A stretch of DNA of 64,000 nucleotides, taken from the NCBI GenBank assembly GCA_037143195.1, contig JBAWZD010000002.1, forward strand, positions 207,157 to 271,156, given 5' to 3'. The notes beneath the pieces were generated by a model, which made no database searches, was not told the DNA's origin, and saw nothing but the letters and a program-made list of their open reading frames with translations. Shown here piece by piece: positions 375 through 59,096 of this stretch (the first letter of the stretch is position 1; every line of letters starts with the position of its first letter). This stretch comes from a bacterium (GTDB taxonomy: Bacteria; Patescibacteriota; Minisyncoccia; Phycocordibacterales; UBA9973). Both the position numbers and the translations under genes were made by a program.

Positions 375-1463
375 ATGGAAAATTTCTTTAATTCATCTCC
401 AAGTAAAAAGGAAGAAGCGGGACCGAACGAACAGGAGCCTTTCCGTGATTTTGAACTCCATTCTAGAGAAAATCTCATTGTAGCGGACTCTCTCTTGTCT
501 AAATCCGAATTACTTGAACAAAGAAGTATAAACCTTAATGAGCTTAATCAAAAAGAAAAAGATGAAGTTAAAAGCAGTTTTAGAAAAATTAAGAATGCTG
601 GAAGAAAGCTTAGCAGGATCGTTTTGACCCGTGTGCTACCGGCCTATATGCTCTACTATGGGGGAGTGAATGTTACCGAGAAAAAAGATGGTACTTTCGC
701 AGAGAAAGAACGTGCAAAAACTGAGCTTGCAAAAGATGGTGTTACCTCGGAACAGAAATCTAATTATAAGATTGGGCTTAGCGAGATGGTCTACCGTGGG
801 ATTACCCCACTCATGTATTCGGAGGACGATCCGATGACCTATCTCAAAATTTTTCCGCATATGATAGCGGGACGTGAACACGATAGGATTCCTATGGTAC
901 CCGGGGAACCTGACGTGGAAATGCACTCGCCTTCTTCAGAGGATGCCTGGAGGATGTATCTTGGCCTTGCTCAGAAAAATCATACTTTTGGGATTTCGGA
1001 TTACAAGCCGGAGCATGCGAAAGATGACAAATACTACTACAGAGTAGAGAAATTCCAAGTCGCCTTCAAGCATTTCTTGAGAGAGTACTATGATAACACC
1101 GGCCCAATTACTTTCGATACCCCTGAAGGAGTCAAACTTCTGACGTTCGCGAAGAGGTTGAATGCTGAAGGGGGCTCGAAAGTGATGAATGGGGCGTCAG
1201 GATTCATTGAGTGGAAGCAAGAAGGCAATCTGGTCGATCTTTCGACAGAGCAGGATGTAGGTTATATGCTCGGACATTTTACTATTTCATGTGGTCAAGA
1301 CGAAAAAGGGACATATATTTCATACTATGATCTCTGGGATTTGGCGAGCCCGACGGAGGAGAGCAAGCTAACAGCTATCGGTAGGCCATTCGAGATCTAC
1401 GACCGCTTGTACTATGATTCTCAGACTGGGAAGCTGATTGAGCCCCACTCGGACTCGAACTAA
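375..1463 (+). CDS. hypothetical protein (362 aa), no recognisable domain
   Basis: long ORF, non-repetitive composition, tightly follows the small acidic ORF. Confidence 0.55.
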   Translation: MENFFNSSPSKKEEAGPNEQEPFRDFELHSRENLIVADSLLSKSELLEQRSINLNELNQKEKDEVKSSFRKIKNAGRKLSRIVLTRVLPAYMLYYGGVNVTEKKDGTFAEKERAKTELAKDGVTSEQKSNYKIGLSEMVYRGITPLMYSEDDPMTYLKIFPHMIAGREHDRIPMVPGEPDVEMHSPSSEDAWRMYLGLAQKNHTFGISDYKPEHAKDDKYYYRVEKFQVAFKHFLREYYDNTGPITFDTPEGVKLLTFAKRLNAEGGSKVMNGASGFIEWKQEGNLVDLSTEQDVGYMLGHFTISCGQDEKGTYISYYDLWDLASPTEESKLTAIGRPFEIYDRLYYDSQTGKLIEPHSDSN

Positions 1464-1562
1464 GAATTTTAGAGAAATTAAAAACTAAAATCTATATATG
1501 ACAAGACATTTTTAGAAAAAGTTCGAGTCGCAATGCGGCAGCAACTTAGTTTTAAAATGAAA

Positions 1563-1593
1563 AGAACTTACGAATGTTCTTTTCGTAAGTTCT
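1563..1593. terminator. hairpin (11-bp stem gaacttacgaa/ttcgtaagttc) between convergent genes, T-rich on both sides
   Basis: inverted repeat read directly. Confidence 0.5.
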
Positions 1594-1645
1594 GTAACTT
1601 TGTTTTTCTAAATTGAAATAATGAGATACCCCACCACTTTACAAC

Positions 1646-2128
1646 TTAGTAGAAATCAGGAGGGAAAAGAACTCCCATCCTAACAGGAATGATGGAGTCA
1701 TACTCACTGTCAATCTCTGAATTATCTACCAACTGCACATTGGTTACGAGTATTTTATCAATGACCCCTTTCATCGTTTCGGAGGTGAACACTGGAAGGT
1801 GTCCTTTGAGTAAGAAGTTGTATTCATTCCTCTCAATGTCACTGACCAAGGTCTCAATTTTTGGCGCTGTCTGGGTCACGATTTCAATAATTCCGTTCAA
1901 TGTAACGGGAATTTTTTTGTCATCACCTTTAACAATGTAAATTCCGTTTCCAGAAAAAAAGAATGTGTACTTTCTCATAATAAGTCTGTTTGTGCCTACT
2001 CTAAAACGGTTTTCGGCTACCCCTTTTGTTAACCCAACCCAGTACCGCGTACCGAACTCGGTTAACAAAAGGGCAGACACTATTTTGCTTGAAAAAGCAC
2101 GTATCCTACCTTCTATATAGTATAGCAT
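1646..2128 (-). CDS. hypothetical protein; alternative in-frame ATG at 1978 is more compatible with the predicted promoter at 2119-2147
   Basis: ORF track; the -10 of the upstream promoter module would lie inside the long form. Confidence 0.45.
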   Translation of the reverse strand: MLYYIEGRIRAFSSKIVSALLLTEFGTRYWVGLTKGVAENRFRVGTNRLIMRKYTFFFSGNGIYIVKGDDKKIPVTLNGIIEIVTQTAPKIETLVSDIERNEYNFLLKGHLPVFTSETMKGVIDKILVTNVQLVDNSEIDSEYDSIIPVRMGVLFPPDFY

Positions 2129-2225
2129 ATAATATATCTATATGTCAATAGTAGAAATACCTTTAATTCAAAGGGTCTTTTGATCAAAAAACGTTCCAAC
2201 ATCGTCCCAGACGGCCAGCTAGCTT
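2116..2225. repeat. conserved intergenic module copy 1: minus-strand ttgaca-N17-tatact promoter plus conserved flank ...aaaaaacgttccaacatcgtcccagacggccagctagc
   Basis: near-identical blocks at 5669-5769 and 6661-6760. Confidence 0.6.
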
Positions 2226-2267
2226 GAGATAGGTTCGGAGTTCGAGGTACTTCGGACCTTCTTGTGA

Positions 2268-2840
2268 ATGCGTGATATAATAAATATTATGGAATTTAAT
2301 CCCCTTGAGTACCCAAAACCAGATTTAGCTTCTTCGCAGAAGGAAAATTCTGTTCCAGAGAATTGGCGGGAAGTGCTTGAAGATAAGATGTTTTATGCTC
2401 ATGAGAATGCGGTTCCCTTGGTGATATTACAAAAACCGGAAGATCAGCTCACAGAGGCGGAGAAAAAGCTCTGGGAAAAAGCCTCTATTCGCGTTAAGAC
2501 CCTAGCTGAATACCAGGCCTTGCAGGCAATGCTTCTCCGCAAACAGGAGCATATCGATGACGATATCGCTCACGAAAACGCTCATGCGAACAAAGCTGAG
2601 TCGCTCGGAATGAATTTCCATGGATATAAAGTCATAGTCGGTTATCGACGCAATGGACTTAGTAAGGAATATTTCTATCTTAATTCCGTCGAAATTTCTA
2701 CACCGAATGAATGGTCAGCTGAAAACGACGCCGATGCTTTTAAGCAGGTACTCTTAGCTCCAGACGAAAATGGTGCCAGTGTCTCTTCGGGCTTGGATCA
2801 CAAAATGCTGGATAAGTTGAATCGTGGGGAGTCGCTATAA
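2268..2840 (+). CDS. hypothetical protein with an HExxH motif (IAHENAH), possible zinc metallopeptidase-like
   Basis: ORF; HENAH motif seen in translation. Confidence 0.5.
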   Translation: MRDIINIMEFNPLEYPKPDLASSQKENSVPENWREVLEDKMFYAHENAVPLVILQKPEDQLTEAEKKLWEKASIRVKTLAEYQALQAMLLRKQEHIDDDIAHENAHANKAESLGMNFHGYKVIVGYRRNGLSKEYFYLNSVEISTPNEWSAENDADAFKQVLLAPDENGASVSSGLDHKMLDKLNRGESL

Positions 2841-3176
2841 AAGTGAGTGTCCGAAGTGTGTGAAAAAACTTAAGAAAAAGACAATTGAAAAAGCTTGTGA
2901 GGTAAGGTATGGAAGTATCCGAGACCAAGTTGGTCAGCAATTTAGTTTTTGGCACCAAGTGACCATCAATCCTTGTTGCAAAACAAAAGCTCGTTTGGAA
3001 AAATGCATTTAGTTTAGAACTTTTACCTAGACGGGTCAAAAGTGCTTTTTGTATATTTCTCGACGTGGAATTGGTTCGAGAACAGGAGGGTTTTTGTAAA
3101 TAGTAAATAAAAAACCCACCGCATTACCGATAGGTTTTTTACGATGGGTTTAAAAATTTCGCACAAAATAAATAAT

Positions 3177-3890
3177 TTACACTTCCACTAATTCTTTCTC
3201 CAAAACCATGTCCGGCAAAGCGCAGAAAATGTAGTCGGTTCTGGAAGGGTTAGTGTGGGGGTACGGCTGATCTTTCTTTTCCCCAATCACCGTCCAAGGC
3301 TCTCCCTTAACATTGAATTTTCCGCTTCTTAGTTCGCTGATTCCAACACCATCAGGCATCTCCGTGCCGTCAAAGTCATTCTGCGGCACCCGGTACGTCA
3401 CATACATGGAATCAACGCCTTCAGACTTCAGCGATTCGCGCAAAATGTAATACAGGTCGTGCCCGAGCTTGTCTATTAATTTTTTAGGCACTTTCACGGG
3501 AACATCGCTCAGCATGTCAGGATAGATACTGAAAAAAAGCTTGCCTCTTTTACTTGCCGGGTCCATAGAAAGCATTGCCAGCATAAGATAGTCGGGGGCA
3601 ATATCTACTATCCGGGAGTAATCCTTGTACTTTTTTGTCACGTCTTCAGGGTCAGTGAAGTACACCGCGTCATTGAGAATACGGACATCCTCACTTATCG
3701 CGGGAACAAACAGTTGCATTGCTTCAAACAAGGAAAGCTTGTAGTAGCCTCCCGGGGTGCCGCATTTTTCCAGTTTTAATTGCGGGTTATCCGCAATGAA
3801 TTCCTCGCCCGCAGGCGTCAACTTGAACCAGACATTCTGGTGGATTGTTATTTTGAACATAGAATTGGTTTTTTTAAAAATTTTGCTCAT
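3177..3890 (-). CDS. hypothetical protein; start placed at ATG 3890 (MSKIFKK), upstream part of the track ORF looks non-coding
   Basis: ORF track 3177..4019 trimmed to in-frame ATG. Confidence 0.5.
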   Translation of the reverse strand: MSKIFKKTNSMFKITIHQNVWFKLTPAGEEFIADNPQLKLEKCGTPGGYYKLSLFEAMQLFVPAISEDVRILNDAVYFTDPEDVTKKYKDYSRIVDIAPDYLMLAMLSMDPASKRGKLFFSIYPDMLSDVPVKVPKKLIDKLGHDLYYILRESLKSEGVDSMYVTYRVPQNDFDGTEMPDGVGISELRSGKFNVKGEPWTVIGEKKDQPYPHTNPSRTDYIFCALPDMVLEKELVEV

Positions 3891-4126
3891 ACTGACAATA
3901 AAATAGGGATATGTCAAACAATTATATGTTGAGAAACCCTCTGAGATTAGAACCAAACAAGAAAACCATATTCTAAAGGATAGGATAGACAGTGACATTC
4001 CGAGACCACCAGCCAACATGAGCGACCAGAGGGAGGCATCGTTGTGCTTAGGTTACTTGTCTTTTTATAAAAATATGTTATAGTTATATCCATAAAACAT
4101 TTCTTTTCATAATTAAAAACAGAAAA

Positions 4127-4861
4127 ATGGGCAAGTTGAAAACTCTAGTATCCGAAGCATTGAATCCCCGCCAGTATGATCATCCAGACATGGCCTGGGA
4201 TAATGAAAGCGCTCCAACATCAGCGCACGTTGCATTCTTTTGGGAGCATTTGTCCCCGCACATACAGTCATGGAAAGGAAAGACTGTATTTGAGATAGGG
4301 TCGGGCACAGGCTGGCTTCTTGACCGTTTGCCCCAGTACGGCGTAGCCAATGCGATGGGATGTGAGCCGTCAAAGAAAAACTGTGAAGAAGCCAAGCGTT
4401 TGTATCCTACCGTCGTCTTGGCGCAAAAAACCTTCGAGTCGTGGAAGGTTCGTGACGGGAAGTTTGACCGCATTTTGGCTGTGATGTCGTTTCATCACAT
4501 ACGGGACTTGTTCCACGCTTTTTACAAAATCAAGACGATGCTTGAGAGAGGTGGTGAAGCTGTAATTGTGGTTCCTGATTACGACTATTCCAGGCAGGAA
4601 AGACACGGGTACGTCATCAATGTATGCGACATAGATGAGCGATCCTACGTTGTTGAAGTTACGCGGGAAACGGGCACTATCGCAGACTATGTTGCGAAGA
4701 CAGAGTTGTATGCCGAAACTGCGAAAGATGCAGGCCTTCAGCTTCTGGAAGATTTTTCTATGATGCCCACTGAAAGGCAGATAGAACTGCGGCCTACCTA
4801 TGAGCAATTCAGGAATGTTCCGATTACTCGGCTGCTCAGGTTCGGCTTAATCGAGAAGTAG
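4127..4861 (+). CDS. class I SAM-dependent methyltransferase
   Basis: motif I FEIGSGTGWLLDRL in translation. Confidence 0.7.
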   Translation: MGKLKTLVSEALNPRQYDHPDMAWDNESAPTSAHVAFFWEHLSPHIQSWKGKTVFEIGSGTGWLLDRLPQYGVANAMGCEPSKKNCEEAKRLYPTVVLAQKTFESWKVRDGKFDRILAVMSFHHIRDLFHAFYKIKTMLERGGEAVIVVPDYDYSRQERHGYVINVCDIDERSYVVEVTRETGTIADYVAKTELYAETAKDAGLQLLEDFSMMPTERQIELRPTYEQFRNVPITRLLRFGLIEK

Positions 4862-4920
4862 GGGAAAAGAATGCGGGTAGACAAAAGATTTTATTACAGA
4901 GTTGCTTTTGTCACATTACA

Positions 4921-4954
4921 AAAGGGCTGATTACGTAAAAGTAATCAGCCCTTT
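4921..4954 (+). terminator. intrinsic terminator (14-bp stem aaagggctgattac/gtaatcagcccttt, then T-rich)
   Basis: perfect inverted repeat downstream of the methyltransferase. Confidence 0.6.
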
Positions 4955-5068
4955 GCTAGTTCTTTTCAGGCTTGTATATTTTTCCGCTCGATACTAAAGT
5001 TCAAACAAATCCACCTATGGAGATTAAGATTCCAACATAGTCCCATACGCTCAGCCCGTAAAAATAAA

Positions 5069-5117
5069 AATCGCCAACTCTGACTTAGCAATTTTTATTG
5101 CTAGGGAGTTGGCGATT
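5069..5117 (-). terminator. hairpin with nested stem, T-rich on minus strand; terminator of the lipoprotein gene
   Basis: aatcgccaactc...gagttggcgatt inverted repeat. Confidence 0.5.
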
Positions 5118-5130
5118 TGGAATGATTCTC

Positions 5131-5556
5131 TTAAACTTTTTTCTTGTAGACATACACGTCTACAAAGTAGGTTATTTTACCTGGATTTGAAGACGGGAGG
5201 GTCCCGTCTTCATTGCCGCACGTGAGAAAGTACCCGTGCGGCGGGTTGAAAATAACATTTTTCACCGACTTTTTTCCTAATGGATATGGCATTGGCCATA
5301 TCGTGCTGTCTATGATATAGCCAGATATCCTGAAGCTATCTGCCTGGGCGACAGCGATAGCTACATCAACGGGAAACTCTCTTTCGAGGAGATAATAACT
5401 CCCCGTCTTAACCCAGTCGGTGGAGTCGGTTGTTAGATTATAACCACCGAATCTCTGCAGATCTTGCAGGTTTTCAGTTGGTTCCGGGGATGCTTGTTTT
5501 GTGCAACCCATGGCAATAAAGGCGGCAAGTAAGCCGTAAGAGATAGTTCTTTTCAT
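5131..5556 (-). CDS. putative lipoprotein (signal peptide with lipobox AMGC)
   Basis: MKRTISYGLLAAFIAMGC N-terminus; start trimmed to ATG 5556. Confidence 0.55.
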   Translation of the reverse strand: MKRTISYGLLAAFIAMGCTKQASPEPTENLQDLQRFGGYNLTTDSTDWVKTGSYYLLEREFPVDVAIAVAQADSFRISGYIIDSTIWPMPYPLGKKSVKNVIFNPPHGYFLTCGNEDGTLPSSNPGKITYFVDVYVYKKKV

Positions 5557-5668
5557 ACTTAGTTTGTTGTTTAAATGTGAGATGTTGTTTAAATCCCGCA
5601 AGAGCCAATGAAGCTCCTCTGGGATTTAAACAATACCAACAACAAATCATTTTCAAGGGCCTGATTTT

Positions 5669-5769
5669 TATATATTATACTCCTTACATCGATTATTGTC
5701 AATAGCTCGGGGTCGCACGTAAAGTTCAGAAAAGAATGTTTCAACATCGTCCTAGACGGTCAGCTAGCG
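5669..5769. repeat. conserved intergenic module copy 2: minus-strand ttgaca-N17-tataat promoter plus conserved flank; followed at 5778-5813 by a 15-bp-stem palindrome ctaaaacagaaattg/caatttctgttttag
   Basis: sequence identity to copies 1 and 3. Confidence 0.6.
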
Positions 5770-5849
5770 TTTTTAGCCTAAAACAGAAATTGCTAAAACA
5801 ATTTCTGTTTTAGCAATTTGAATAAATTTAATTTGGTTACTTTTTCGTG

Positions 5850-6539
5850 TTATAAGAATAACTTACACATAGCGATGGTAACCGATGAAATGCAGACGAT
5901 GTTTATCCCTAGATTGTAAATCTGTGACGACAGACTTTTGCTCTTGATTCTAAAAATCAGGACGTACAAATTTCCAGCAATGAAGGGAATCAGCAACGGG
6001 TGTCCTTTGTGAAGTATCACAATTGCTGCAATCATTATACAGAATGCCGCGATTATAATTAGCCTCACCGTTAGGATTGTATTAAATAAGCTTGTGTGTA
6101 AAGAATCGCTTATTTTCCTTCGGCTCAGTTCCCACCACAGATACGGCCCGGTAATACTGATCATCCCCAATAAGGTGTATCCGGCATACCAGCCGGTGTC
6201 GGTGTGGATGTCTCCCCACCATGTTGTCTTGATCACTTCTTCCCATAAATAACGGGTAGAGTCGAGATACACGTATCGTGCAACTCCCATTCGGCCTGAG
6301 TACATTGTTGCATCAATTGTTGGCAATATGGCCGTAGCGAGCCAGCAAAGTGGTGCCATCAGCATCAGGGTCAGCAGTGTATTTTTTATCGTCGGATATT
6401 TCCATATCCAGTCAATTACACGCTTTTTCTTTCCCAGGGTTTCTGGGTCATTATTCAAGAGGGTGCACCCATACGCGTAGGCGATGCATGCCTGTGTCAT
6501 TACGATCGCAACCAGTGCGATAAAAATTGTCTGATTCAT
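5850..6539 (-). CDS. polytopic membrane protein, function unknown (track ORF starts at TTG 6623; ATG 6539 chosen)
   Basis: multiple hydrophobic segments. Confidence 0.5.
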   Translation of the reverse strand: MNQTIFIALVAIVMTQACIAYAYGCTLLNNDPETLGKKKRVIDWIWKYPTIKNTLLTLMLMAPLCWLATAILPTIDATMYSGRMGVARYVYLDSTRYLWEEVIKTTWWGDIHTDTGWYAGYTLLGMISITGPYLWWELSRRKISDSLHTSLFNTILTVRLIIIAAFCIMIAAIVILHKGHPLLIPFIAGNLYVLIFRIKSKSLSSQIYNLGINIVCISSVTIAMCKLFL

Positions 6540-6660
6540 ATTTGTCGTTTTTGTTTTGTGGCGTAAAGCCGGTTTGAGTTGGTTGCCCCAAGGGCCATAA
6601 AGCCTCTCGGGCAACCAATTCAAACCAAAACGACGTTAATTTCAAAGACTATTAATTTGT

Positions 6661-6760
6661 ATTATATCATATAATATGTCTATATGTCAATAGCTGAAAT
6701 ACCCCTTAAGATATAGCTTTTTAAGCAAAAAAAGTTCCAACATTGTCTTACTGTGGCAGA
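6661..6760. repeat. conserved intergenic module copy 3: minus-strand ttgaca-N18-tataat promoter (-35 6685-6690, -10 6661-6666) plus conserved flank
   Basis: sequence identity to copies 1 and 2. Confidence 0.6.
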
Positions 6761-6908
6761 AAAGCCGATGAATATGTGTGGCGAGATTATGGTTGCCACG
6801 GTAAAAGACCCGTGGAAAAATCTGATTGGCCTCATCTATCCCGTTTGACGAAATGGGAGGTTGCCGTTACTATTGTGCCATGACATATAATCCGATATAC
6901 ATTTTTGT

Positions 6909-8030
6909 ATGATAAACACTATTGGCATTATCGGTGGAGGCCAGCTTGGCAGAATGCTTACAGATGCGGCTCATCGTCTCGGTTTTAAAGTACTTATTCT
7001 TGATCCTGAGCCCAATTCTCCTGCCGGACAAGTCGCAGATGGACAAGTCGTAGGAGATTATAAAGACGAAAAAACAATTCTTGAGTTTTCAAAATCAGTT
7101 GACGTTATTACCTACGATATTGAAGGAGTGAGTGATCACGCTTTAGAATTACTTGAGCAGAGTGGATTTCAGGTTCATCCAACATCGAAAACACTTTCGA
7201 TTATTCGAGATAAGTTCACACAAAAAAAACTTCTGAATTCGGTCGGCATCCCCGTTGCAGATTTTATGGAAGTATCGACACCAGCTGATGCAGAGAGAGC
7301 AGGTGAGACATTCGGCTACCCATATATCCTCAAGGCTCGTACGGGAGGATTTGATGGAAGAGGTAATGCGAAAATACATTCACCGAGCGATATTGAACCT
7401 ATGTTTAGGGTGCTTGGCACAAATCTCTGCGCAGAAAAATTTATTCCTTTTGACAGGGAACTTGCAATTGTTGCGGCGAGAACGGTGCAAGGGGAGATTG
7501 CCGTTTTTCCTCTCGTGGAGACTGTCCACGAAGATCATATTTGTAAAATGACATTCACTCCGGCAAACGCGACGAATACTATTCGTGAAAAGGCGTCGTT
7601 GATTGCACAAAAAGTACTTGCTGCTTTTCTAGGTGCGGGTGTTTTTGCAATAGAATTGTTTTTGGTGGGGGATGATCTTCTTGTGAATGAGATTGCTCCT
7701 CGGGTGCACAACAGCGGACATTTTTCTATCGAGGCGTGTGTGACATCACAGTTTGAGCAGCACATACGAGCCATAACGGGGATGCCACTTGGTCCATCAG
7801 AAATGAAAGTTCCGTGTGCTGTCATGGTGAATATCCTTGGTACGCGTGATGGGATTTCGGAACCACGTGGCGTCGAAGAGGCGGAAAAAATTCCTGGTGT
7901 AACGGTGCATATCTATGGTAAATTACAGGTACAAAAAAAGCGAAAAATGGGACATATCACGGCAGTAGCAAGTACGAGAGAAGAAGCACAGCGGAACACA
8001 GAGAAAGCATTAGCGGCTATTACACTATGA
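6909..8030 (+). CDS. purK: N5-carboxyaminoimidazole ribonucleotide synthase (ATP-grasp)
   Basis: IGIIGGGQLGRM N-terminus, ATP-grasp layout, 4-bp overlap with purE. Confidence 0.9.
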   Translation: MINTIGIIGGGQLGRMLTDAAHRLGFKVLILDPEPNSPAGQVADGQVVGDYKDEKTILEFSKSVDVITYDIEGVSDHALELLEQSGFQVHPTSKTLSIIRDKFTQKKLLNSVGIPVADFMEVSTPADAERAGETFGYPYILKARTGGFDGRGNAKIHSPSDIEPMFRVLGTNLCAEKFIPFDRELAIVAARTVQGEIAVFPLVETVHEDHICKMTFTPANATNTIREKASLIAQKVLAAFLGAGVFAIELFLVGDDLLVNEIAPRVHNSGHFSIEACVTSQFEQHIRAITGMPLGPSEMKVPCAVMVNILGTRDGISEPRGVEEAEKIPGVTVHIYGKLQVQKKRKMGHITAVASTREEAQRNTEKALAAITL

Positions 8031-29240: not shown

Positions 29241-29379
29241 GCTTGGGTTCGCAAAAAACAAAAAAGCACTTTTGAAAGTACCGGCGTAAATTTCTGAAGA
29301 AATTTCGCCTCACGCTCGCGCCGTCGCGCTCCGCGAGTACTTTCAAAAGTGCTTTTTTGTTTTTTGCGAACCCAAGCTT
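29239..29379. repeat. 141-bp palindromic terminator element A: perfect 43-bp outer arms spanning stop codon to stop codon of convergent genes, with GC-rich core homologous to the element at 58974-59096
   Basis: inverted repeat and core identity read directly. Confidence 0.7.
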
Positions 29380-30691: not shown

Positions 30692-32968
30692 ATGAAAAAT
30701 CTCAAAAAATACTCTGCACTCAAAAGTATCCAGAAGCGCGACACTTCAATCGTTCCCTTTGATCCAAAGCGTATCGAACGCGCGCTCGCGCGCGCTATGG
30801 AAGTAGCGAACGAGGGAGGAAGTAAAGAGGCAGAGCATGTCATGTTCAAAGTGCTCGACACATTGCTTGCACTCAAAGCGGAAAAGAAGAACAAGAATTT
30901 CATTCCATTCGTTGAGACGATTCAAGACGTCGTTGAAAACGAACTCATTGCAGCAAATTTTTCACAGACAGCCAAGGCATACATTTTGTACCGTAAGGAG
31001 CGCTCGCTCGTGCGTGAGAAAGTTGGATTTGTTCCAGAGAAAGTCAAAGAGCTTGCAACTGAGAGTAAAAAATATTTCCGCAATCCGCTTGCAGAGTTTG
31101 TGTACTACCGCACCTACTCACGTTGGATCCCAGAAGAGGGACGTCGAGAGACATGGGTGGAGACCGTTGATCGTTACATGAGCTTCATGCGCGAGAACCT
31201 CGGTTCAGGTCTCACCGAAAAAGAATATGCAGAAGTCCGCGAGGCGATTCTTCGCCAAGAAGCAATGCCATCGATGCGCCTTTTGCAGTTTGCAGGCAAG
31301 CCCGCACGCCGCTCAAACGTGTGTGCGTACAACTGTTCATTCATTGCGCCTCGATCATTCCAAGATTTCGCTGAGATAATGTACATCTCCATGTGTGGTA
31401 CTGGAGTCGGCTGGAGTGCTGAAAGTGAAAATATTCAAGCGCTTCCACAAATCAAACGCCAGACAGGAAAGAAGCTTCCAACATATCTCGTGCCAGACAG
31501 CAAGGAAGGATGGGCAGATGCATTTAGCTTTGCGATGAAGACATGGTTTGATGGTAATGATGTTTCGTTCGACTACTCACTCATTCGTCCAGCAGGTTCA
31601 CGTCTCAAGACAATGGGAGGCAAGAGTTCTGGTCCAGAGCCACTTCGTTCATTGCTCGATTTCACTCGTGAGCGTATTCTTCGTCGCCAAGGACGTCACC
31701 TCACAAACCTCGATGCACACGACATCATGTGTAAGATTGGAGAATGTGTCGTTGCCGGTGGTGTTCGACGCAGTGCGATGATCTCGCTCTCTGATCTTGA
31801 TGACGAAGCAATTCGTGATTCAAAGAAAGGTCAGTTCTATCTCGCCGAAGCTCAGCGTATGCTCGCAAACAACTCTGCGGTCTACCTCGAGAAACCATCT
31901 GCATCAGAATTCCTCGATGAATGGGTCGCACTCATGAAGAGTGGATCAGGAGAGCGTGGTATTTTCAATCGCGGATCACTCGCAAAGACATTGCCAAAGC
32001 GTCGTCTTGATCAATGGAAAGATGGTATCTATCCATCATGGGGCACAAACCCATGTGGAGAAATCATTCTTCAGTCAAAACAATTCTGTAACTTGTCAGA
32101 AGTTGTTGCGCGCGCAGAAGACACACTCGAAGATCTCGAACGTAAGATTCGCGTTGCCACGATTCTCGGTACGTACCAATCAACACTCACATACTTCCCA
32201 TACCTTTCAAATGAATGGAAGCGCAATTGTGAGAAGGAACGTTTGCTCGGAGTTTCAATCACTGGTCAGTGGGATTCTTCAGTTGCACGTAAGCCAGAAG
32301 TACTTGAACGTCTCAAAACAGTTGCAGTTGATCTCAACAAGAAACTCGCAAAGCGTCTCGGTATCAATCAGTCACTCACTGTTACGTGTGTGAAGCCATC
32401 AGGCACAGTGTCACAGACAGTGGACTGCGCAAGTGGCATGCACCCACGTCATGCTCCATATTACATTCGTCGTGTTCGCATCTCTGCGAGTGATGCACTC
32501 TTCAAGATGCTCCGTGATCAGGGCGTGCCATATCTTCCAGAAGTTGGACAAACAATGGAAGGCGCATCAACATTCGTATTTGAATTCCCAATGAAGGCTC
32601 CAAATGGCGCAATTTGTCGCGATGATATCGACGCAATCAGACAGCTCGAACATTGGAAAGTCGTTAAAGTGAATTACACAGAACACAATCCATCCGTAAC
32701 TATTTCTGTCGGTGAAGATGAATGGATCAAGGTGGGCAACTGGGTCTATGAAAACTGGGATATCGTTGGAGGACTTTCATTCTTGCCACGCTCAAACCAT
32801 GTCTACCAGCTCGCACCATATGAATCCATCACCAAGGAGCAGTACGAAGCAATGCTCGGCAAGGTCTCGCATTTGGATTTCTCAAAGATTGTGACGTACG
32901 AGGTCGAGGACGAGACAGAAGTGAAGCGTGAGCTCGCCTGTGTCGCCGGAGTGTGTGATACCGCATAG
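30692..32968 (+). CDS. nrdJ: class II adenosylcobalamin-dependent ribonucleotide reductase
   Basis: ATP-cone N-terminus, NPCGEI active-site motif, size. Confidence 0.9.
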   Translation: MKNLKKYSALKSIQKRDTSIVPFDPKRIERALARAMEVANEGGSKEAEHVMFKVLDTLLALKAEKKNKNFIPFVETIQDVVENELIAANFSQTAKAYILYRKERSLVREKVGFVPEKVKELATESKKYFRNPLAEFVYYRTYSRWIPEEGRRETWVETVDRYMSFMRENLGSGLTEKEYAEVREAILRQEAMPSMRLLQFAGKPARRSNVCAYNCSFIAPRSFQDFAEIMYISMCGTGVGWSAESENIQALPQIKRQTGKKLPTYLVPDSKEGWADAFSFAMKTWFDGNDVSFDYSLIRPAGSRLKTMGGKSSGPEPLRSLLDFTRERILRRQGRHLTNLDAHDIMCKIGECVVAGGVRRSAMISLSDLDDEAIRDSKKGQFYLAEAQRMLANNSAVYLEKPSASEFLDEWVALMKSGSGERGIFNRGSLAKTLPKRRLDQWKDGIYPSWGTNPCGEIILQSKQFCNLSEVVARAEDTLEDLERKIRVATILGTYQSTLTYFPYLSNEWKRNCEKERLLGVSITGQWDSSVARKPEVLERLKTVAVDLNKKLAKRLGINQSLTVTCVKPSGTVSQTVDCASGMHPRHAPYYIRRVRISASDALFKMLRDQGVPYLPEVGQTMEGASTFVFEFPMKAPNGAICRDDIDAIRQLEHWKVVKVNYTEHNPSVTISVGEDEWIKVGNWVYENWDIVGGLSFLPRSNHVYQLAPYESITKEQYEAMLGKVSHLDFSKIVTYEVEDETEVKRELACVAGVCDTA

Positions 32969-33541: not shown

Positions 33542-33569
33542 GGGTGATGTGCGGTGCGATTACAAATGA

Positions 33570-33735
33570 ATAATCATGATTGGGGAAGTGAGGTGAAAAT
33601 CCTCCACAGTGCCGCTACGGTTATAGTCCGACTACCAATCATTGATGTAGTAATGAAACTTTTTGTTTCATCCCGAGCAGGAAATGGTCGCGCGTACGCG
33701 CGACCCCGGTACTCCTCTCCTCGGGGGAGTTTTTT
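33570..33735 (+). promoter_or_regulatory. candidate cobalamin riboswitch with terminator-type expression platform (hairpin plus TTTTTT at 33709-33734)
   Basis: GGGGAAg-tga-GGTGAAAATCC-tcca-CaGtgCCGCtACgGTtA matches the AdoCbl core GGGAA..GGUGnAAnUCC..CnGnCCCGCnACnGUnA; AGCAGGAAA resembles a degenerate B12 box. Confidence 0.6.
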
Positions 33736-40235: not shown

Positions 40236-40475
40236 CTAATTCCACTCTTTAAAAGAAATAACAATTTTTTTCCAATTTTCTCGAAGGCTTTTTTGGGGGT
40301 CGTACAGACTGTCGTTCCATGCAACAAAACCTGATATACCGCCTATGAGAGCATAAAAAAAAGGATTGACATGTGTTAATAGTGTCAACAAAGGGAATAT
40401 AATAATTCCCAAAAACGTTGATATCATTCGTTGTTTAGTTATTCGAGGTACATTCATCTTGATTACAATTTCCAA
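40236..40475 (-). CDS. small membrane protein
   Basis: ORF; diverged copy of the promoter module (ttgaca-N18-tataat on minus strand) upstream at about 40470-40510. Confidence 0.4.
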   Translation of the reverse strand: MEIVIKMNVPRITKQRMISTFLGIIIFPLLTLLTHVNPFFYALIGGISGFVAWNDSLYDPQKSLRENWKKIVISFKEWN

Positions 40476-40538
40476 TATTATATAATATATTTACATAATT
40501 TGTCAAGTCTTTAGGAAAAAACGGTTATCCACACTTGC

Positions 40539-40558
40539 ATGTGAACGAACGTTCACAT
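40539..40558. promoter_or_regulatory. candidate LexA (Cheo-type) operator ATGTGAACG-AA-CGTTCACAT
   Basis: perfect 9-bp inverted repeat containing GAAC-N4-GTTC, upstream of the small ORF and lexA. Confidence 0.5.
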
Positions 40559-58973: not shown

Positions 58974-59096
58974 TTGCCGAATTAAAAATACCCACTTTCA
59001 AAAGTACCGGCGTAAAATCCTGAAGGATTTTTGCCTCACTCTCTCGCCGTCGCGCTCCGAGAGTACTTTTGAAAGTGGGTATTTTTAATTCGGCAA
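58974..59096. repeat. 123-bp palindromic terminator element B, abutting the rnj stop codon; core homologous to element A (29239-29379) with compensatory substitutions
   Basis: perfect 34-bp arms; 56-nt core about 84 percent identical to A. Confidence 0.7.

Follow-up and report, generated by a model that had tools for sequence, protein, structure and literature searches.

Two described systems are among those closest to the element treated here. Genomic islands and tycheposons of Prochlorococcus are reportedly anchored at tRNA genes and carry repeated partial-tRNA attachment (att) sites (Coleman et al. 2006; Hackl et al. 2023), and T4-type phages are said, by Arbiol et al. 2010, to carry mobile regulatory cassettes named PeSL (promoter-early stem-loop). 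Here we describe a repeat of about 35 bp, the box, which occurs in a 64,000-nucleotide (nt) stretch of a Patescibacteriota genome (contig JBAWZD010000002.1, positions 207,157 to 271,156; referred to as the window) and in many related genomes. It resembles the tRNA-anchored islands in two respects: the variable DNA starts exactly at a tRNA 3' end, and the repeats are co-oriented, direct and homologous to that end. As in the PeSL system, short conserved intergenic sequences with promoters or terminators flank ORFans (orphan open reading frames, ORFs) in hyperplastic regions and delimit shuffled units; the layout of terminator, box and promoter in the window is also similar. We read the box, with a probability of roughly 55%, as a Paceibacteria-wide, tRNA-Gln-derived attachment-type site that delimits mobile single-gene cassettes.

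The window contains four copies of the box. Their limits and their matches to the profile of the whole family are:

2187..2221, minus strand: box A, core 26-mer 2193-2218 (CTGGCCGTCTGGGACGATGTTGGAAC), family profile E = 2e-11, exact match to the scan pattern
5023..5055, minus strand: box E, core 5029-5054, family profile E = 4e-6, nhmmer E = 0.02 with a model excluding box E
5732..5766, minus strand: box B, core 5738-5763, family profile E = 3.5e-8
6728..6761, minus strand: box C, core 6734-6759, family profile E = 4e-5, the most degenerate copy

Box A is the nearest of the four to the family consensus, and conservation against the family profile drops from A to C. The window box is written here as ttgCTGGCAGTCTGGGACGATGTTGGAACctttnt; its consensus in the window modules is GCTAGCTGnCCGTCTrGGACGATGTTGrAAC.

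A first-pass annotation of the window had described a four-copy module of promoter and conserved box. Alignment confirmed the minus-strand homology of three of its blocks (2116-2225, 5669-5769 and 6661-6760), delimited here as A (2105-2235), B (5660-5780) and C (6650-6775). Their nhmmer E-values range from 7e-33 to 3e-27 for a model built from the same three blocks, and blocks A and C are 79% identical over 90 nt. Each module consists of a box, a spacer of 32-41 nt and a near-perfect promoter of sigma70 type with the form CTATTGACA-N17/18-TATAaT. The supposed fourth copy at 40470-40535 shares with them only a consensus promoter, which is perfect (40477-40506); box homology was not detected there (nhmmer E = 63), and the family profile gave no match in this interval at E < 10. 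The true fourth box is box E, which had been overlooked. It is a solo copy, with neither promoter nor downstream gene, placed between the convergent terminators of gene B and of a methyltransferase gene on the plus strand. A further weak match at 31465 lies inside a coding gene and was taken as chance. Box, spacer and promoter were propagated as one unit of about 100 nt within this lineage, which is why the three blocks had looked like a module.

A degenerate 26-mer that fits all four window copies was scanned against 185,579 species genomes; by our own bit-count estimate about one match is expected by chance. Matches were obtained in 105 genome stretches; almost all of these belong to Patescibacteria (Paceibacterota, Parcubacteria, Kaiser- and Nomurabacteria), frequently with several copies per 8-kb block. 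The window box belongs to a class-wide repeat. In the 105 loci a profile search found 282 copies, compared with 145 exact pattern matches. The copies form arrays with a median spacing of 562 nt and up to 7 copies per 8 kb. They are locally co-oriented, and matches on both strands occur in only 1 of the 105 loci. The family consensus over 140 copies is ttG CTGGCAGTCTGGGACGATGTTGGAAC CTTTnT. Positions that the scan pattern had left free are nonetheless about 90% conserved, and the edges of the conserved block are sharp, at -3 and +32. Neither the consensus nor window copy A folds (DNA minimum free energy 0 to -2.6 kcal/mol, z +0.4 to +1.1); this fold test and the asymmetry of the consensus reveal no palindromic unit or terminal inverted repeats as in repetitive extragenic palindromes (REP) or miniature inverted-repeat transposable elements (MITE).

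By its sequence the box evidently descends from the 3' end of the tRNA-Gln gene, covering the T-loop to the discriminator base and some 3 nt of the flank downstream. Its reverse complement, AGGTTCCAACATCGTCCCAGACTGCCAGCAAT, can be aligned to the 3' end of tRNA-Gln together with the flank (AGGTTC---GATC--CCTAGTCTCCCAGCAAT). Among 38 tRNAs the alignment is best for tRNA-Gln, with a score of 27 against a shuffle mean of 12.7; 1 of 5000 shuffles reached this score. The loci also contain about 33 solitary tRNA-Gln 3' fragments and intermediate forms, co-oriented with the boxes, and many of the solitary fragments bear the box-like sequence TCTGCCAGC. These fragments hold genomic flank (AAT) and not CCA, which indicates copying at the DNA level. 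Of 38 tRNA genes in the loci, 22 encode tRNA-Gln, and every one of the 22 has a co-oriented box 312-1900 nt downstream. One derived form of the box carries a 5-nt insertion relative to the tRNA and is about 90-100% identical across many species-level genomes, while the flanks are unrelated.

The arrays are hypervariable, and homology between them is limited to cassettes. Between sister genomes, collinearity extends as far as a tRNA gene or a solitary tRNA-Gln 3' fragment, and past this anchor only the boxes match. The pairs of loci compared are:

L003/L028: 77% identity to the last base of tRNA-Gln, then 3-4 versus 6 boxes and unrelated genes
L008/L077: collinear to a solitary tRNA-Gln 3' fragment, then 6 versus 3 boxes
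L007/L039: both flanks conserved, with 5 versus 2-3 boxes between the flanks
L046/L079: collinear to the 3' end of tRNA-Ala, with only boxes matching past this anchor

Core collinearity ends 1-16 nt from the solitary tRNA-Gln fragments. For the shared cassettes F31, F35, F49, F50, F61, F69, F76 and F110, DNA homology between genomes or contexts ends 0-15 nt from the boxes, at both ends. Two genomes with core proteins of 51-79% identity share an F35 cassette protein that is 88% identical. In junction alignments read in the tRNA sense, homology starts where the left site ends and includes the right site, so that each cassette owns the site on its 3' side; in the minus-strand orientation used for the window this is the box at the 5' end, before the promoter. 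In F69, where the left sites belong to different types, sequence identity sets in only at GCCAGC. The left fragments of F35 show 5 differences in 29 positions, and the cassette directly after CCAGCAAT is nearly identical. Proteins encoded in the arrays are singletons in 85% of cases (n = 228), compared with 61% outside the arrays, and no recurrent gene family was found next to boxes or within arrays in the 105 loci.

Based on these comparisons we propose the following mechanism. In the minus-strand orientation of the window, a cassette would consist of a box, its own promoter, a leader, one gene and a terminator, with the box acting as an attachment-type recombination site. Cassettes would be inserted or exchanged by recombination at the CCAGC/AA end, which is common to tRNA-Gln, solitary fragments and boxes, and this recombination would give rise to co-oriented arrays whose anchors are tRNA 3' ends or solitary fragments. 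The data directly show the repeat family, its ancestry in and linkage to tRNA-Gln, its co-orientation, the restriction of homology to cassettes and the hypervariability of the arrays. From the tRNA-3'-end ancestry and anchoring, together with the F69 junction, we infer that the recombination is site-specific and enzyme-mediated, by a recombinase that is not linked to the arrays. A more ambitious form of the proposal is an undescribed, integron-like cassette system of Paceibacteria. There, tRNA genes or fragments would serve as primary integration sites, a recombinase encoded elsewhere would act on the unstructured, tRNA-Gln-derived site of about 35 bp to insert, excise and exchange single ORFan genes with their own promoters, and the window would represent one array. 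We rate this fuller version at somewhat less than even odds. The alternative already raised in the first-pass annotation, a remnant of a mobile promoter-carrying element, was essentially right in that the box appears to be the conserved end of promoter-bearing cassettes.

Several observations weigh against a dedicated attachment site. A crude motif search of the 105 loci revealed no linked recombinase, with a tyrosine recombinase motif in 1 of 1224 crude proteins, and the box is absent from IMG/VR viral contigs, which leaves no known donor element. Box conservation shows no gradient along the arrays with distance from tRNA-Gln. Homology restricted to cassettes is also what homologous recombination between boxes would produce, and the gene calls in the loci are crude longest-ORF calls, so that the counts derived from them are approximate. 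In the 64-kb window there are no tRNA genes. The boundary of the insert that carries the window boxes (see below) lies 82 nt past box C and not at box C, and its left anchor, at about 1517-1545, is weakly tRNA-like (similarity to a tRNA-Gln fragment, p about 0.035). Finally, homologues of the tyrosine recombinase encoded in locus L011 were collected from 80 metagenome loci, and boxes were nearby in only 3, that is, there is no linkage.

The L011 gene (4195-5142) and its counterpart in L127 (6001-6888), both from one lineage, encode XerA/XerC/XerD-like tyrosine recombinases and end 1-23 nt from a box. Given the lack of linkage across the 80 homologous loci, the L011 enzyme was rejected as an array-linked integrase. 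A phage or plasmid donor was rejected on the absence of the box from IMG/VR, and no tyrosine recombinase motif was found in the proteins of the window.

The main rival explanation is homologous recombination between boxes. The boxes would then be homology anchors, comparable to PeSL-like mobile regulatory cassettes, and RecA-type recombination between them, for example after DNA uptake, would shuffle ORFs with no dedicated recombinase. This would account for the failure to find a linked recombinase, and it agrees with the homology of shared cassettes, which extends over the complete box at either end. Members of this phylum commonly have competence genes. The spread of box, spacer and promoter as a single unit in the window also fits, as does the fusion of a conserved promoter to the box in a long form of the repeat (24 of 141 copies, see below). 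On the other hand, RecA-dependent exchange reaches its lower limit at 26-35 bp of identity. Homology anchors also leave unexplained the descent from tRNA-Gln, the precise anchoring at tRNA 3' ends and the GCCAGC junction where the left sites differ in type. We regard this explanation as a serious one of clearly lower probability than the attachment site.

Alternatively, the boxes could be inert scars, decaying leftovers of past tRNA-targeting integrations without present function. The graded decay of the four window copies, the abundance of degenerate copies elsewhere (the excess of profile matches over exact matches) and the lack of an integrase are what one would expect of scars. Decay does not explain why the derived form with the 5-nt insertion is held nearly identical across many genomes between unrelated flanks, nor why the same cassettes recur between boxes in distant genomes. 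Both argue for continuing use and selection, and we consider inert scars improbable.

The boxes are oriented according to strand composition. The strand that carries the box as written has negative guanine-cytosine (GC) skew in 79 of 98 loci, and among loci with strong skew the ratio is 44 to 3. On long contigs the box orientation switches once. Locus L056 (LFCQ01000002.1, 64-72 kb), the sole both-strand locus, also contains dnaN and the end of dnaA. The replication origin may be marked by box orientation; in this contig the switch would place it at about 67.0-71.7 kb. For the window, it is the G-rich plus strand that carries the box in reverse complement. Such polarity, together with the dnaA/dnaN locus, the single switches and the presence of about 10-12 exact copies per genome, could suggest a replication-polar protein-binding site, such as a Ter-like fork barrier or a chromosome-organising site, that merely tends towards variable intergenic regions. 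The core ATGTTGGAAC presumably resembles the E. coli Ter core ATGTTGTAAC. The same polarity is equally expected, however, for sites that are derived from a tRNA and co-oriented with it. In addition, the copies cluster at a spacing of 300-1000 nt around single ORFans, and the homology of shared cassettes stops at the boxes. We consider a replication-polar site very unlikely.

The position of the box relative to genes and promoters bears on the regulatory function proposed in the first-pass annotation. Of 96 copies classified by their two flanking genes, 40 have both genes opposite to the box, 15 have both in its own orientation, 21 (22%) lie between convergent genes and 20 between divergent ones. 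A recognisable promoter follows the box, at a distance of at least 5 nt, in 46 of 141 copies outside the window. In 24 of the 141 this is the long form, in which the box is followed by CTTTnTGCAAc…TGnTAnnnT…cTGTCTAGAC, a Shine-Dalgarno sequence and ATG, and in which the TTGGAA of the box is located at -35 spacing from a conserved extended -10 element. A further 22 copies have a TTGACA promoter 5-30 nt past the box, and 95 have neither promoter type. A role of the box as a promoter or operator element is not supported. Hardly tenable is also the explanation as an activator-binding or UP-type element co-regulating a small envelope regulon: three window boxes do stand at similar distances (32-41 nt) upstream of near-consensus promoters and the long form has its -35 spacing, but neither the orientation of the box nor its distance to promoter or gene is fixed over 145 copies (box-promoter distances range from 5 to 41 nt), its orientation tracks GC skew and not the neighbouring gene, most copies and box E lack a promoter, many lie between convergent genes, and the adjacent genes share no family or function, which largely refutes a coherent regulon and leaves it very little probability.

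The long form is in itself a conserved promoter unit of about 62 nt, with the box fused to about 36 nt, and precedes unrelated genes (e.g. L034 4642-4710, L083 1230-1294 and L042 1436-1500). Interpretation of the GGAAC motif as part of a sigma-54 or extracytoplasmic function (ECF)-type promoter was discarded, because the spacings do not fit. An RNA structure formed by the box or the long form was likewise rejected; candidate stems showed no covariation, and the box does not fold. In many genes of L002-L106 (e.g. L029, L054, L087 and L022) a TAnnnT hexamer, often after TG, is located 6-8 nt before the ATG without a Shine-Dalgarno sequence, and judging from this arrangement leaderless mRNAs appear to be widespread in these genomes.

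In the window, the promoter-like sites associated with cassettes A, B and C are:

2119..2148, minus strand: cassette A, TTGACA-N18-TATACT with TG upstream of the -10 element, 11/12 consensus positions
5674..5702, minus strand: cassette B, TTGACA-N17-TATAAT, 12/12
6661..6690, minus strand: cassette C, TTGACA-N18-TATAAT, 12/12

The near-consensus minus-strand promoters described in the first-pass annotation were recovered as the top three matches within 1400-7000. A perfect TTGACA-N16-18-TATAAT occurs 3 times in 64 kb, compared with 0.02 expected occurrences. The box does lie upstream of these promoters as had been described, but its distance from the inferred start sites is about 75-110 nt, slightly farther than the earlier -60 to -100.

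The promoter at 40.5 kb differs from modules A-C also in its 5' untranslated region (UTR), which is short and unstructured. The sequence aaaaaacggttatccaca of this site includes a DnaA-box-like 9-mer whose frequency in the window is that expected by chance. At 40525-40558, TTATCCACA (the DnaA-box 9-mer) adjoins the palindrome ATGTGAACGAACGTTCACAT of the GAAC-N4-GTTC LexA-box type, both upstream of the promoter.

The 5' UTRs of modules A-C are 110-135 nt long, and each contains a very stable hairpin of differing sequence:

2021..2073, minus strand: long hairpin in the 5' UTR of gene A, flanks pairing with the region just before the ATG, fold z -3.8
5563..5646, minus strand: long hairpin in the 5' UTR of gene B, with an outer helix that covers the 10-20 nt before the ATG, fold z -4.8
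6571..6626, minus strand: long hairpin in the 5' UTR of gene C, with an outer helix (6544-6634) sequestering the region before the ATG, fold z -7.6

In all three leaders the segment 5' of the hairpin is predicted to pair with the 10-20 nt that precede the ATG. Leaders B and C align in register with compensatory pairs, and G·U pairs in the folds favour the mRNA strand. Since three independent and significantly stable folds share one architecture, the structured 5' UTRs are most simply explained as cis-acting translational or stability elements of the cassette genes; in the models they look like a conserved element that sequesters the translation start or stabilises the mRNA. The Rfam family DUF805b RNA matches the 5' UTR of gene A (1993-2026, minus strand) over its full length, with a sequence-rich alignment, at 31.7 bits and E = 4e-6; this score falls below the gathering threshold of 35.6 bits, and the protein of gene A is not DUF805 by Pfam. 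The hairpins were also inspected for attC-like cores; GTTAAC-type arms occur only in hairpin A, and this interpretation was rejected.

The genes of the three cassettes are:

1646..1978, minus strand: gene A, 110 amino acids, no hydrophobic segment, no Pfam match
5131..5556, minus strand: gene B, 141 amino acids, lipoprotein-like N-terminus (…AAFIAMGC), no Pfam match
5850..6539, minus strand: gene C, 229 amino acids, polytopic membrane protein, strict ORFan, no Pfam match

The cassette genes of the window are ORFans. Among 5.8 billion proteins, gene C has no homologues and matches only itself. The earlier statement that all copies drive genes for secreted or membrane proteins holds only in part: B looks like a lipoprotein and C is polytopic, but gene A lacks a hydrophobic segment. 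The promoters and structured 5' UTRs of the window are best read as expression signals borne by the cassettes and not as targets of a shared activator.

All four boxes are located in an insert beside purK:

1543..6843, strand not applicable: lineage-specific segment of about 5.3 kb, absent around purK in relatives with 80-85% identical PurK
2222..5022, strand not applicable: segment between boxes A and E with three genes, 2289-2840 (plus strand), 3177-3890 (minus strand) and a methyltransferase gene, 4127-4861 (plus strand)

These relatives have no box within 10 kb of purK, and other genes lie upstream of purK. Homology with them resumes at 6843/6844 and, on the other side, only at 1448-1542. 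The boxes split the insert into cassette C (about 1.0 kb), cassette B (about 0.7 kb), the three-gene segment of 2.8 kb and cassette A. Proteins B and C were found only on contigs of this genome itself and protein C has no homologue, so that the window cassettes offer no second context in which their mobility could be seen.

The intergenic piece at 1440-1545 (L109 6908-7002) contains an inverted repeat, ACTCGAAC … GTTCGAGT, the halves of which resemble tRNA T-arm fragments. In a relative this piece is 74% conserved despite unrelated flanking genes; the protein encoded at 375-1463 is not homologous to that of the gene at the matching position in L109. This inverted repeat may be the anchor of the cassette array in the window. 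In the relatives L109 and L111 (1900-5475), a Gabija-like gene pair for an OLD-like ATPase and a UvrD-type helicase lies a few kb upstream of purK, which points to the purK-proximal region as a variable or defence hot spot in this lineage.

Two further elements were observed in the window. An AdoCbl-II (cobalamin) riboswitch is located at 33563-33645 on the plus strand (55 bits, above the gathering score). A 99-nt element is present in two copies (29260-29358 and 58986-59084) that are 82% identical; its termini are inverted repeats of about 22 nt, AAAAAAGCACTTTTGAAAGTAC … GTACTTTCAAAAGTGCTTTTTT, and it resembles a MITE or a bidirectional terminator.

Patescibacteria have tiny genomes and depend on hosts, and their gain and turnover of accessory genes are poorly understood. 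An integron-like cassette organisation has apparently not been described in them, and neither the searchable literature on their islands, cassettes and partial tRNAs nor searches with the sequence itself yielded a description of the box repeat. A searchable marker of 26-35 nt would allow the flexible gene pool, mostly ORFans and with many envelope proteins, to be catalogued from metagenomes. It would also allow the enzyme that moves the cassettes to be sought by phylogenetic profiling, and the orientation of the box would allow replichore orientation to be inferred in fragmentary metagenome-assembled genomes. If an unlinked recombinase does act on so simple a site, it would constitute a compact new site-specific recombination system. 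For the window, the promoters are to be regarded as cassette-borne, and the regulon interpretation should be dropped.

With regard to a Tus-Ter type fork barrier, which has asymmetric, replication-polar sites of about 23 bp in two opposed groups, polarity and single switches of orientation were seen for the box; the tight clustering and the cassette boundaries fit poorly. The box system differs from PeSL cassettes in that it resides in a cellular genome, is derived from a tRNA and is often promoterless, with the stem-loop outside the repeat. In contrast to the tRNA-anchored islands, the units are single genes of 300-1000 bp without an integrase, the repeat found most often is not an exact copy of the tRNA end but a derived and strongly conserved variant, and the box also occurs far from any tRNA gene, as in the window. 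Xer-dependent modules (dif-like sites, as on Acinetobacter plasmids, and IMEX) are similar in that simple sites of about 28-35 bp bound modules without a recombinase of their own, and by analogy it is conceivable that a housekeeping recombinase acts in trans on the boxes. The box, however, lacks the 11-6-11 dyad, its copies are direct and not alternating, and there is no linkage to the Xer-like gene.

Integrons are a further system for comparison. The box is a simple, unstructured site of about 35 bp that is conserved in sequence, whereas attC is an imperfect palindrome conserved in structure; the box, which does not fold, is thus no attC. Box cassettes have their own promoters and mixed gene orientation, whereas integron cassettes are mostly promoterless and depend on the common promoter Pc. 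There are several box arrays per genome, anchored at tRNA genes or fragments, and the crude motif search of the 105 loci found no integron-type integrase (intI) adjoining them. Both systems nevertheless consist of co-oriented arrays of mostly single-ORF, mostly ORFan cassettes with one recombination-type site at a fixed cassette end. In both, the content is hypervariable between close relatives, and the orientation of the array is tied to the direction of replication.

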